64,000 nt of DNA. Origin: an uncultured Spirochaetaceae bacterium (GTDB lineage Bacteria; Spirochaetota; Spirochaetia; SZUA-6; RPPD01). Below the pieces are notes generated by a model. The model was given only the letters and a program-made list of their open reading frames with translations. It did no database searches and had not been told where the DNA came from. A program made the translations under genes and the position numbers. This document shows positions 5,992 through 63,967 of this stretch, one piece after another. Every line of letters starts with the position of its first letter. Within the stretch, counting starts at the first letter, position 1. Where the stretch lies: the NCBI GenBank assembly GCA_964634205.1, contig CAZWKE010000015.1:66-64065 (forward strand), given 5' to 3'.

Positions 5992-6453
5992 TTAGTTTTG
6001 CGTATGAGGATGACCATGGTCCGCCGAATATTCCTTGTCCAAAAGCTCCAACAGAAAGCGTAAGTCTCCGAGCATTCGCTCTATCCGGTCCGACGGCATG
6101 GAGAGAAATATCTGTTTCAGCCTGGATTCCATGGGTTTCATCCAGTTCCCGATAAAATTCTCCAGCGTGGGGGTCGCTGAGATAATAAAACTGCGGCGAT
6201 CCTCCGGATCCAGGCTGCGGGTCAAAAGCTCCTGGCTTTCCAACCTGTCGATGATCCCCGTCAGCGTACTGGCCGGAATACCGATCCTTTCGGCAAGTTC
6301 GGTCACTCGGCTTGTCTTGCGTTTTTTCATGCTCACCAGCACAAAAATCTCAGTCATTGAAAACCCGGCGTTCCTGAATACGTCCCCCATCATGTGCCTG
6401 ATTTTGTGGCTGATCTGGTGAAACAGTTCAAACAACTGGATTTCATAGTCCAA
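5992..6453 (-). CDS. MarR-family transcriptional regulator
   Basis: 153 aa. Winged HTH SRVTELAERIGIPASTLTGIIDRLESQELLTRSLDPEDRR. First gene of the efflux operon and divergent from osmC. Confidence 0.8.
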   Translation of the reverse strand: MDYEIQLFELFHQISHKIRHMMGDVFRNAGFSMTEIFVLVSMKKRKTSRVTELAERIGIPASTLTGIIDRLESQELLTRSLDPEDRRSFIISATPTLENFIGNWMKPMESRLKQIFLSMPSDRIERMLGDLRFLLELLDKEYSADHGHPHTQN

Positions 6454-47102: not shown

Positions 47103-48761
47103 ATGAAAATCAGTGTAGTGCTTCCCTCGGGTAAAGAAACCATTGTTGACGCCGGGACAACAACCGAACAGATCTTGTCCGCTCCCGAGTTTGCGGATGA
47201 CCGGCCGTCCATTATTGCCGCCTTGGTGAACAATGAGATCGTCAGCCTGTCGTATAATCCGGAGGTAAACTGTTCGTTTCAGCCCATCCTGCTGCATTCA
47301 CGGGACGGCATGATCATTTACCGCCGCTCGCTCTGTTATCTGCTGGCCAATGCCGGGAAACGCCTGTTTAAGAAAAGAAGGCTTGTCATCGGGCACTCCC
47401 TGGGTAAGGGATATTACTTTTACTTTGACGGAATGGACAGTGTGCCCGAGGAGGATCTGTATAAACTGCATGAAGAAATGCGCAGGATTGTCGCTTTGGA
47501 CCTGCCGATTACCCGGTATAAGATGTCATATACCGAGGCCCTGGCTTATTTTAAAGAGAACAATCAACCGGACACGGTGCTCCTGATAAAAAACAGCAAC
47601 GCGCCCAGGGTGCCGGTAAACCGCTGTGGTGATTTTATCGATATCTCCCATGGTCCGCTGATACCCCGGACCGGAATGTTGGATATTTTTCAGATTAAGA
47701 ATTATCCTCCCGGATTCATTCTGCGCTATCCCCCCCTGGCTTCGCCCGGCCGCATCAAACCGTTTGAAGATAATCCCATTTTGTTTTCTGTTTACCAGGA
47801 GTACAAACATTGGGGCAAGATATTAAAAATCAACTGTATCGGGCTTTTGAATGAGAAGATAAAGGCCGGGGAGATAAAGGAGTTTATTGAGATTGCGGAA
47901 GCCCTGCATAACAGCAAAATCGTGGAGATAGCCGAAAGCATTCGCCGCAAGAACGGCGGCGGGAACCTTGTGTTGATTGCCGGTCCTTCTTCCTCGGGCA
48001 AAACCACCTTTATGAAGAAACTGTCCATACAGTTAAAGGTGTTCGGGATTACGCCCGTGGCTATTTCGATCGACGATTATTTTCTTCCGCGTGAGCAGAC
48101 CCCGCGGGACAAGCACGGGAACTATAATTTTGAAACCCTGGAAGCGGTGAATGTTGATCTGTTGAATACCCACTTAAACCAGCTTTTGGACGGAAAGCAG
48201 GTGCTGATTCCCATTTATGATTTTACGGCAGGGAAGCCCAAGACGCAGGGAAAAAAGGTAAAACTTGATGAAAATTCAATCGTCATTCTGGAAGGGATCC
48301 ACGGCCTCAACGACAACCTGACCCCGCGTATCAGCGTGGACAAAAAGATAAAGATCTACGTATCCGCACTGACCCAGCTGAACCTGGATGATCATAACCG
48401 CATCCCCACCACCGACGTGCGCCTGCTGCGGAGAATGGTACGGGACTACCGGTTCCGCGGGCACAGTGCCCTGACCACATTCAAGATGTGGCCGTCGGTA
48501 CGCCGCGGCGAAGATAAATATATCTTTCCCTTTCAAAACAATGCGGACATGGCTTTTAATTCCAGCCTGGATTATGAGCTTGCCGTGTTAAAGGTGTATG
48601 CCGAGCCCCTGCTGAAAACAATCGAGCCGTCACACCGGGAATACAGTGAGGTGAAACGCATGCTGGCCTTTCTGGAGAATGTGATTCCCGTGCCCGCGCT
48701 TTGGGTGCCCCCCCAATCGATTTTACGGGAGTTTATCGGAGAGAGCAGCTTTTCCTACTAA
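47103..48761 (+). CDS. Uridine/cytidine kinase-family nucleoside kinase with N-terminal TGS-like domain
   Basis: P-loop LIAGPSSSGKTTFMKKL. Udk motifs AISIDDYFLPRE, YNFETLEAVNVDLL, PIYDFTAGK. Confidence 0.7.
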   Translation: MKISVVLPSGKETIVDAGTTTEQILSAPEFADDRPSIIAALVNNEIVSLSYNPEVNCSFQPILLHSRDGMIIYRRSLCYLLANAGKRLFKKRRLVIGHSLGKGYYFYFDGMDSVPEEDLYKLHEEMRRIVALDLPITRYKMSYTEALAYFKENNQPDTVLLIKNSNAPRVPVNRCGDFIDISHGPLIPRTGMLDIFQIKNYPPGFILRYPPLASPGRIKPFEDNPILFSVYQEYKHWGKILKINCIGLLNEKIKAGEIKEFIEIAEALHNSKIVEIAESIRRKNGGGNLVLIAGPSSSGKTTFMKKLSIQLKVFGITPVAISIDDYFLPREQTPRDKHGNYNFETLEAVNVDLLNTHLNQLLDGKQVLIPIYDFTAGKPKTQGKKVKLDENSIVILEGIHGLNDNLTPRISVDKKIKIYVSALTQLNLDDHNRIPTTDVRLLRRMVRDYRFRGHSALTTFKMWPSVRRGEDKYIFPFQNNADMAFNSSLDYELAVLKVYAEPLLKTIEPSHREYSEVKRMLAFLENVIPVPALWVPPQSILREFIGESSFSY

Positions 48762-49123
48762 ATGATGATGGACTCGGATTTCATAATGGTTTTTTCTATC
48801 ATGGAGATGAACTCCTTGTCGGGTTTAAGAAACATCAGTCCGAATCCGCTGTCCGCGGAGTCCTTGTCCGGCCCGAAAATCCTGGCCGATCGCACCACCC
48901 GTACCTGGCCTTCGTAATAACGCCTGCCGTGGTCATCCACAAGGATATCAAGCTCTTCTCCAAGCTCAAACAGGGAAAGGTCCTCGGTGGAGATAAAAAT
49001 CCCCCCCAGTGACAGATTGGTGGTCCTGAATTCCATAATGGAAAACACGTTATCCGGTGTGGCCTTCTTTATGATAGTCGTTAAATTGTACTGTCGCCTG
49101 TCGGCTCTGCGTTTTTCAACCAT
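48758..49123 (-). CDS. PilZ-domain protein (c-di-GMP receptor)
   Basis: RRADRRQY and NLSLGGIFIST match the PilZ RxxxR / DxSxxG motifs. Confidence 0.7.
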   Translation of the reverse strand: MVEKRRADRRQYNLTTIIKKATPDNVFSIMEFRTTNLSLGGIFISTEDLSLFELGEELDILVDDHGRRYYEGQVRVVRSARIFGPDKDSADSGFGLMFLKPDKEFISMIEKTIMKSESIII

Positions 49124-49181
49124 GGGAAAAATCTCTACTACTGACTAGTATATGCAATGAAATATGCTCTGTAAAGAATAA

Positions 49182-49419
49182 TTAGTGGTACGAAGCCTGC
49201 GCCTAAGTTATGGAATTCAGATATAGGCATATTGCGGCACATAATGCTTCTCCGGGTAAGGGGTAAACACCTTTTTCAACCAAAGATCGTCAAGGAAGCC
49301 CCACAAAAAGCTAAGTTTGGGAAATCCTGTCGATTCGATTTTGGATGGTGTTTCGGTTCAACTTAATACAGACAAAAGGTATGTTTTGCTTTGTTTAGGC
49401 GCAGGCTTTGTGCCACTAA
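49182..49419 (+). ncRNA. Candidate structured RNA or MITE: 188 nt bracketed by a perfect 25-bp long-range helix (with 2 G-U pairs on the plus strand)
   Basis: 49182-49206 (ttagtggtacgaagcctgcgcctaa) pairs base-for-base with 49395-49419 (ttaggcgcaggctttgtgccactaa). Both non-Watson-Crick positions are G-U on the plus-strand transcript and C-A on the minus strand. Intergenic between pilZ and the ykgJ-like gene. Confidence 0.35.
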
Positions 49420-49721
49420 CCACCTTTTATCGTGGGAAGGAACCGCCGCCAGGGGCGGTATTTTTTTACATACCCGCAGCTTTCCGGGAGATAGCGGGAG
49501 AATAATGCGTGAAACATGGTAACCTTTTCACAGTTTTTACAGATAATAAATCTTTCATTGTATACGGAACATGTTTTTTGATCGATATTTAAAAAATCGC
49601 ACGGTTTGTCCAGGTTGATGGTGACGGACAGCCCGTGGTGCTCTTTTTCATAACAGCAGATCCCGCAGCGTAAGCATAATTCTTCCCAGGCCTGCCGCTT
49701 TTTTGCAAAGAACCCGCTCAT
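49416..49721 (-). CDS. YkgJ-family (CxxCxxCC) putative Fe-S/zinc cluster protein
   Basis: CLRCGICC motif plus further Cys (CSVYNERFIICKNC). 101 aa. Confidence 0.6.
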   Translation of the reverse strand: MSGFFAKKRQAWEELCLRCGICCYEKEHHGLSVTINLDKPCDFLNIDQKTCSVYNERFIICKNCEKVTMFHALFSRYLPESCGYVKKYRPWRRFLPTIKGG

Positions 49722-50416
49722 GGCGTATCGGCTTCTTTTTTCAGGAGTCTTTTATTGAGTATCAAAAATGTCAGAGGGACCGATATCCCCACAATTATGA
49801 GAAGAATAGCCCAGAACAGGATGAATTTGGAAAATAAAATGACAAAATAGTAGATAAACGCGCAAAACACAATAATGGCCCCCGCGTAAAGGCTGAAGCG
49901 CATTTTGTGTTTTTGTACGGAAAACAGGTACACCGCCAGAAATGACAACCCTATGCTGAGTACCAGGAACACCGGATGAAATCCTATCTCGGGCTGCAGC
50001 ATACTCATCCAGATCCAGAGGCTCAATCCATACAGTGAACCCGCAGGCAGTAATGCCCACCACTGCGCCCTTTGCAGAAGAAAAATGATCAGAAAGGTCG
50101 TGCCGAAGCCGAAGGACAGGAGCGCCGCCGCCAGGGTGCCGATTATTTCGGCAAAGCCGAAAATAAGAATAACAATGCCGAAGCTGAAGGACACGCCGGC
50201 AGGGATAATAAACCAGAACAGCCCGCCGCCCCTGCCCTGAAAAAAGGCAAACACGATCCCGGTGACAAATAAAAGGATCCCAATTACCCTTTCGGTGGCC
50301 TGACCGACCGGGGGGATGATGCTGAAGTTCGTCAGGAGAAAGAATATACCGCTTAAGATCAGGGCCGTGCCCACAAAACCTGTTCGCCAGAAAAAGAAAT
50401 TATCATTCGCTTTCAT
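49718..50416 (-). CDS. Hypothetical polytopic membrane protein
   Basis: Start taken at MKANDNFFFWRTGFVGTALIL. At least 7 TM helices. ATGA overlap with the ykgJ-like gene. Confidence 0.45.
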   Translation of the reverse strand: MKANDNFFFWRTGFVGTALILSGIFFLLTNFSIIPPVGQATERVIGILLFVTGIVFAFFQGRGGGLFWFIIPAGVSFSFGIVILIFGFAEIIGTLAAALLSFGFGTTFLIIFLLQRAQWWALLPAGSLYGLSLWIWMSMLQPEIGFHPVFLVLSIGLSFLAVYLFSVQKHKMRFSLYAGAIIVFCAFIYYFVILFSKFILFWAILLIIVGISVPLTFLILNKRLLKKEADTP

Positions 50417-56303: not shown

Positions 56304-56375
56304 GCCAGAATAGCTCAGGGGTAGAGCAACGCTCTCGTAAAGCGTGGGTCGTGGGTTCAATTCCCACTTCTGGCT
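56304..56375 (+). tRNA. tRNA-Thr (anticodon CGU)
   Basis: Cloverleaf: acceptor GCCAGAA/TTCTGGC. Anticodon loop CTCGTAA. T-arm GTGGGTTCAATTCCCAC. No encoded CCA. Confidence 0.85.
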
Positions 56376-63895: not shown

Positions 63896-63967
63896 GCGAG
63901 CGTCGTATAATGGTTATTACCCGAGCTTCCCAAGCTCGTGACGAGGGTTCGATTCCCTTCGCTCGCT
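63896..63967 (+). tRNA. tRNA-Gly (anticodon CCC)
   Basis: GCGAGCG acceptor. Anticodon loop TTCCCAA. T-arm GAGGGTTCGATTCCCTT. Near-identical to the E. coli tRNA-Gly(CCC) core. Confidence 0.85.

Follow-up and report, generated by a model that had tools for sequence, protein, structure and literature searches.

The 238-nt segment at positions 49182-49419 of the window, i.e. of the whole 64-kb stretch of DNA that was analysed, is very probably a DDE-type insertion sequence (IS) that internal deletions have reduced to a non-autonomous remnant. In other words, it is an ordinary mobile-element remnant, and it is new (mildly) only in the poorly annotated IS family to which its parent belongs. The remnant proper is 232 bp long (49185-49416) and the sense strand of its transposase fragments is the minus strand of the window. 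It consists of three colinear blocks that are 98-100% identical to full-length copies of the IS found on other contigs (L009, L006, L010, L011 and L012). According to the history that we propose, the parent IS would have entered the stop codon (TAA) of a ykgJ-like gene at its TA, 8 bp upstream of the -35 hexamer of pilZ. Two internal deletions would then have followed in the lineage of the window, with loss of the start codon and of every putative catalytic residue of the transposase, while both ends were kept. The long helix of the segment would then be nothing more than the two transposase-binding ends of the element facing each other.

The segment is bounded by an inverted repeat whose 25-nt arms (49182-49206 and 49395-49419) are 188 nt apart. 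The arms are 92% complementary (23 of 25 positions) according to the repeat search, and the two mismatches, which were checked by hand, are left T8 against right G18 and left G11 against right T15. Both of them are G-U on the plus strand and C-A on the minus strand; the inverted repeat described in an earlier note on this DNA, including the G-U character of both mismatches on the plus strand, is thus borne out by the search as well as by the hand check. Since inverted repeats of 25 nt with at most two mismatches and within 500 nt of each other are expected only 8e-5 times in 64 kb, and no shuffled window yielded two matches to the arm, the repeat is not a product of chance. Neither the arm nor the subterminal sequence was found a second time in the 64-kb window.

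The biologically meaningful arms are somewhat shorter, i.e. they are terminal inverted repeats (TIRs) of 22 bp that match at 20 of 22 positions. The left repeat (IRL, 49395-49416) reads GTGGCACAAAGCCTGCGCCTAA on the minus strand, adjoins the ykgJ-like gene and does not differ from the IRL of the same-site full-length copies. The right repeat (IRR, 49185-49206, plus strand), recognized by the repeat search and by comparison of IS ends, reads GTGGTACGAAGCCTGCGCCTAA inward and adjoins pilZ. In each 25-nt arm, the three outermost nucleotides represent the TA flank and one base of a palindromic TTAA target. It is conspicuous that TA flanks both sides of all eight elements compared, which belong to five IS species and include distant relatives with 40-44% identical proteins (L024, L028, L036 and L037), and that the TIR begins directly after TA in each of the eight. 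The third base outward is usually T...A in the family, and it is T...C in L013; because this base varies, we take the TIR proper to be 22 bp and the flank to be a TA duplication, typically within TTAA. A duplication of 3 bp (TTA) or 4 bp (TTAA) was considered and rejected, as the left and right triplets, TTA and TAA (TTA and TAC in L013), are not direct repeats. In the window, the TA flank on the IRL side lies at 49417-49418; the one on the IRR side, which comparison of the family elements identifies as the second copy of the target-site duplication, lies at 49183-49184.

A look-up by identical PilZ protein gave eight contigs from estuarine/sediment-type metagenomes and one NCBI MAG. In most of these, the short element is the one seen in the window. 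Three contigs, L006 (GCA_037381525.1, 'Spirochaetia bacterium'), L009 and L012, have about 1 kb more between the ykgJ-like gene and pilZ, and here we find a 1.25-kb element that has the same 25-nt repeats and encodes a 372-aa ORF. The flanks of the same-site full-length copies in L006 and L009 are 97.8-99.4% identical to the window, therefore these two contigs represent strains of the window's species. The full-length IS, located at 986-2234 of L006 and at 1406-2654 of L009, is 1243 bp long, is flanked by TA, and has 22-bp TIRs and one transposase gene of 372 aa.

The remnant was aligned with the full-length IS using blastn, with the IS numbered from the T of TTAGTGG, so that its full length is counted as 1249. 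All three blocks align to the minus strand. Block 1 (IS nt 1-57, window 49419-49363, 100% identity) comprises the IRL with its flank and the left subterminal sequence (49363-49394), which is part of the 5' untranslated region of the transposase gene. Block 2 (IS nt 362-403, window 49362-49321, 100%) is a 42-nt island of transposase coding sequence from the HTH region, covering approximately codons 90-104 (aa 90-104 according to tblastn). In block 3 (IS nt 1104-1249, window 49327-49182, 97.9%), the part other than the IRR (49207-49327, IS nt 1104-1224) carries the 36 C-terminal codons of the transposase (aa 337-372) with their stop codon, and also the right subterminal sequence.

The window element is, according to this alignment, the full-length IS minus two internal pieces of about 304 and 700 bp. 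The deletion of about 304 bp removes the transposase start codon, and its junction has no obvious homology. The deletion of about 700 bp lies between direct repeats of 7-9 nt (GGATTTC), with GGATTTCGC present twice in the intact copy; the 7-nt microhomology GGATTTC that is common to blocks 2 and 3 marks this second junction at 49321-49327 on the minus strand. Of the 372 residues of the transposase only aa 90-104 and 337-372 are detectable in the window. The start codon (IS nt 96) and D126, D216 and D262, i.e. all of the conserved acidic residues, are deleted from the remnant. The statement of the earlier note that no ORF explains the conservation of the segment is incorrect, as the interior is composed of transposase gene fragments and untranslated ends. 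The interior is conserved because it shares a recent common ancestry with the 1.25-kb IS.

The insertion site itself is informative. The host gene, a 101-aa ykgJ-like (CxxCxxCC) gene, occupies 49416-49721 on the minus strand (PF03692, E 7e-4, which is below the cut-off). With the IS present, its stop codon is TAG (49416-49418, minus strand), in which TA comes from the flank and G is the first base of the IS. If the element is removed together with one TA, the sequence reads ...GGT GGT TAA TTATTC..., i.e. the gene ends at an in-frame TAA and the protein is again 101 aa long; the reconstructed empty-site junction is GGTGGTTAATTATTC. An actual empty site is found in L019, a Spirochaetaceae MAG with 79% identity in the neighbouring PRK-family kinase; it has the same gene order, a ykgJ-like gene of 100 aa, no element, and 76 nt from the stop of that gene to the ATG of pilZ. 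The length of the ykgJ-like protein is thus unaltered by the insertion (101 aa, against 100 aa at the empty site). Were TA a part of the IS, with no duplication, the ykgJ-like ORF would be 15 codons longer and would run through the pilZ promoter. Judging from the reconstruction of the stop codon and from the 79%-identical empty site, TA appears to be a true target duplication rather than a terminal dinucleotide of the element. When the 101-aa ykgJ-like protein was looked up in order to find an empty site within the same species, all sites returned were occupied or truncated.

On the other side of the element, a promoter-like site of pilZ (TTTACA-17 nt-TATACT, 49147-49175, minus strand, 10 of 12 matches) is left untouched, and 8 bp separate its -35 hexamer from the TA flank. 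The same hexamers and the same spacing are kept in L019 (about 6046-6074). Neither gene was damaged by the insertion, since the stop codon was rebuilt as TAG and the promoter-like site of pilZ is intact, and the insertion probably persisted for the reason that it was near-neutral.

Copies of the IS are also found at other places. Two contigs (L010 and L011) carry full-length copies that are 99.8-99.9% identical to the pilZ-site copy and have unrelated flanks, and an 80%-identical relative lies between other genes in L013. Moreover, there are solo left-end remnants with no right end in L017 (636-688, 53 nt) and L016 (4316-4349, 34 nt). These near-identical copies at other sites, the relative in L013 and the solo ends tell us that the IS is or was mobile, and the full-length, doubly deleted and solo-end states are all represented. 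We note that the solo end in L016 is followed by a tandem repeat of about 35 nt, GGTCAGTGCCTGCCGGA(G/T)ATTTTTTACCTGCCCC.

The short form, on the other hand, was seen at only one locus across all samples and is identical in at least eight of them. The same deletion junctions were not seen at another site among 37 loci. A scan with the TIR pattern gave no matches in genome contigs and none in viral contigs. In metagenome contigs, an incomplete collection in which known carriers were missed, the scan gave five matches, three of which are chance hits to an unrelated gene and two are solo ends. A tblastn search against plasmids gave no matches either, and an exact protein look-up of the 44-aa ORF inside the remnant for other copies returned no record. 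It may also be mentioned that several independent assemblies break in or at the left end of the element (L003-L005 start there and L031-L033 end there), which is consistent with IS ends being repeated elsewhere in those populations.

How, then, did the short form come to lie at this site, and does it do anything there? The earlier note had mentioned, as its second choice, a miniature inverted-repeat element upstream of pilZ. This was essentially right as to the nature of the segment, which has the ends of an IS, TA flanks and no coding capacity; the many copies that such an element leads one to expect were not found, and the short form was seen at one site only. A true mobilised MITE, i.e. a multi-copy 232-bp form that is spread by the transposase of intact copies and that arrived here by transposition, is therefore unlikely in our opinion. 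Such an origin would agree with the fact that the remnant retains everything needed in cis (both 22-bp TIRs, the TA flanks and a small size, under the limit of about 600 bp for elements of this kind), that intact and near-identical transposase genes are present in the same populations, and that the assemblies named above break at the ends of the element as they would at a repeated sequence. However, the breaks are equally well explained by the multi-copy full-length IS, the window has no second copy, none of the other loci among the 37 has the same junctions, and the very TA at which the remnant lies is taken up by full-length copies in sister strains whose flanks are 98-99% identical. Because the long form sits at the same TA in the sister strains, deletion in place is the simplest history, and we infer that the insertion came first and the deletions followed at the site. 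With its ends and flanks retained, the remnant may still be open to mobilisation in trans by the intact copies. In Neisseria and in pneumococci, the Correia elements and RUP (the latter linked to IS630-Spn1) are IS-derived MITEs with a TA duplication, and elements of this type are present in tens to hundreds of copies per genome. The remnant resembles them in several respects: they are approximately 100-250 bp long, have TIRs of about 20-26 bp and TA flanks, lie in intergenic regions near promoters, have no coding capacity and bear the ends of an autonomous IS. It differs from them in that the short form is found at one site, where it visibly derives from a full-length copy, and in that the transposase of its parent is not a member of IS630 by sequence.

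The preferred reading of the earlier note was a structured regulatory RNA, 6S-like or other, transcribed from the plus strand and closed by the 25-bp helix. The size of about 190-240 nt and a long helix that joins the 5' and 3' ends are indeed features shared with 6S RNA and other long-helix RNAs. Both mismatches of the stem are G-U on the plus strand, the whole segment folds on this strand with a z-score of -5.1, and a terminator-like hairpin with a T-run (49442-49468, plus strand) follows 23 nt downstream of the element. Nevertheless, we consider an RNA of this kind extremely improbable. The Rfam scan suggested in the earlier note was carried out, and it gave no relevant match; even at E<=10 there was nothing relevant over 48500-50100, with noise elsewhere, and the only matches at the gathering threshold in the 64-kb window are two tRNA genes (56304-56375 and 63896-63967, plus strand). 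In other words, the remnant has no covariance-model match. Folding likewise gave no lasting support: the strong signal of the whole segment is present on the minus strand too (z -4.4), and the interior without the arms (49207-49394) has z-scores of +0.79 on the plus and -0.29 on the minus strand, i.e. it folds no better than shuffled sequences and has no internal structure above the background. Moreover, the interior is debris of the transposase coding sequence, 98-100% identical to the IS, and it is not conserved outside the IS family. As for conservation and covariation in relatives, the 79%-identical relative L019 has nothing at this place, sister strains hold 1.25 kb between the same arms, and the short copies are identical so that there is no covariation to count. 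The G-U positions themselves vary. Arm position 8 (GTGG[C/T]AC) is T in L011 and C in L006, in either case on both arms, and the A of the IRL at arm position 11 (AC[A/G]AAG) is seen only in copies at the pilZ site. Since IS copies differ at positions 8 and 11 of the arm, the two 'G-U' pairs represent ordinary transitions of the TIRs, and the proposal of the earlier note that they point to an RNA antisense to pilZ and the ykgJ-like gene finds no support. One could still argue that, across the family, six of seven independent IRL/IRR mismatches are of the G-U type on the strand antisense to the transposase; this bias is not significant (two-sided binomial p ~0.13). The terminator-like hairpin lies within the ykgJ-like coding sequence and is not kept in L019. 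Co-option of the remnant by its neighbours seems to us slightly less remote, and still very improbable. In this case a hairpin of 22-25 bp in minus-strand read-through from the ykgJ-like gene to pilZ would serve as a processing site, a terminator or an insulator that uncouples pilZ. The position of the element between two co-oriented genes, the identity of the short form in at least eight samples and the fact that pilZ keeps a conserved promoter of its own just downstream of the element would be in line with such a role. On the other hand, there is no sign of selection, the samples show the identity of members of a single population, sister strains carry the full-length form at this site with no apparent harm, and the minus strand has no T-run after the hairpin. 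A remnant of an IS, deleted in place, thus remains by far our preferred reading of the segment.

A few observations on the surroundings and the ends of the remnant should be added. The hairpin downstream of the element, ACCGCC-GCCAGG-GGCGGT (49442-49459) followed by T7 on the plus strand, is antisense to the 3' end of the ykgJ-like gene, and no plus-strand gene ends there; that some plus-strand transcript ends at 49442-49468 is conceivable. In the region 48900-49800 the only promoter-like site on the plus strand is at 49216-49245, inside the element (9 of 12 matches), and none was found upstream of the arm at 49182.

The six of seven IRL/IRR mismatches mentioned above have C in the IRL against T in the IRR, or A against G, and two distant species (L024 and L037) share such a C/T difference at TIR position 13 (GAAsC[C/T]TG). 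The direction of the mismatches more likely reflects a small asymmetry between IRL and IRR than RNA pairing; it may correspond to a functional left/right asymmetry of the ends, or to chance. Both TIRs also contain an inward-facing motif that resembles the -24/-12 elements of sigma-54 promoters (TGGTAC/TGGCAC-N5-CTGC, 9 of 10 positions), at 49186-49200 on the plus and at 49401-49415 on the minus strand, and the one in the IRL would face the transposase gene in the intact IS. A sigma-54 promoter as a conserved feature of the family was rejected on the grounds that the TIRs of L024, L028 and L036 do not have the GG-N10-GC spacing; the motif is probably coincidental, and the transposase-binding core GAAsCyTG is the likelier source of it.

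The classification of the parent transposase is less straightforward. The 372-aa protein (MEJ2664449.1) has no Pfam domain above threshold, and phmmer found no match to PDB chain sequences at E<=1. The NCBIfam IS1 model NF033558 gives 37.2 bits (cut-off 100), with an alignment limited to the N-terminal 100 residues; the ISL3 model of NCBIfam gives 27 bits, restricted to the N-terminal zinc finger and HTH. NCBIfam IS1 matches are found in 34 of 36 family members, whereas the IS630, DDE_3 and HTH_Tnp_IS630 models of NCBIfam and Pfam have no match at E<=0.1 in the 36. A profile of 118 homologues compared with E. coli IS1 InsA gave an hhalign probability of 92.5% (E 4.8e-7). The catalytic part compared with InsB gave E 0.11, and here the TD...(D/E)R...R-x-S-x-x-F motifs line up, which is suggestive.

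The AlphaFold (AF2) model calculated from the 118-sequence alignment has a pLDDT of 93 and a pTM of 0.92. Its best fold matches in the PDB according to Foldseek are the transposase of ISCth4 (IS256 family, 1e-4), retroviral integrases (6e-4 to 6e-3) and Mos1/Metnase (0.02), and on account of these matches we assign an RNase-H-like DDE core to the protein. D126 and D216 show no variation in the family, and D262 almost none. D126 is located in strand 1 (123-132), D216 ends the strand 211-216, i.e. it lies after strand 4, and D262 is in the helix 256-268; these three residues are the putative catalytic ones.

The parent IS was compared with two known groups. With IS1 it shares the InsA-like zinc finger and HTH of the N-terminus as well as the RNase-H-like core. 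It differs from IS1 by its length (1243 bp against 768 bp), by one uninterrupted ORF of 372 aa in place of insA/insB with a frameshift, and by a score with NF033558 that is far below the cut-off. The target duplication of IS1 is 8-9 bp according to the ISfinder description, whereas the flanks here are the 2-bp TA in 8 of 8 elements. With IS630/Tc1/mariner it has in common the TA flanks on every element, a length of 1.2-1.3 kb, a single ORF of about 370 aa and weak fold matches to Mos1 and Metnase (E ~0.02). Unlike members of that group, it has an N-terminal zinc finger and no match to IS630/DDE_3 models, and the spacing between the second and the third acidic residue is 46 (D216-D262) or 59 (D216-E275), not 34-35.

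At least 765 homologues were found, nearly all of them on contigs of 1.2-2 kb, and such short contigs are the signature of a repeat that breaks assemblies. The named homologues come from Spirochaetia (Rectinema, Marispirochaeta and Spirochaetaceae MAGs) and are called 'hypothetical' in the NCBI annotation. In the literature we found no named IS family that combines an IS1-like zinc finger/HTH, an RNase-H-like core and TA flanks. We tentatively suggest, as a possibility somewhat short of a probable one, that the parent IS represents an unclassified, Spirochaetia-wide group with an IS1-type head, a divergent RNase-H-like core (probably D-D-D/E) and an IS630/mariner-like target (TA, TTAA-like). 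Such a group would be invisible to Pfam, NCBIfam and PGAP, and the 232-bp remnant would be its first recognized MITE-like derivative, mobilisable in trans.

The value of the result is mostly negative, in that a false ncRNA candidate is removed: a decayed IS can mimic a long closing helix, complete with G-U pairs. The locus nevertheless offers a clean case, and one that can be dated, of an IS decaying in a population of uncultured Spirochaetia, and a case of an insertion into a stop codon that rebuilt the stop codon. Finally, it draws attention to a transposase family of several hundred members that annotation pipelines call hypothetical and that fragments the metagenome assemblies of spirochaetes.
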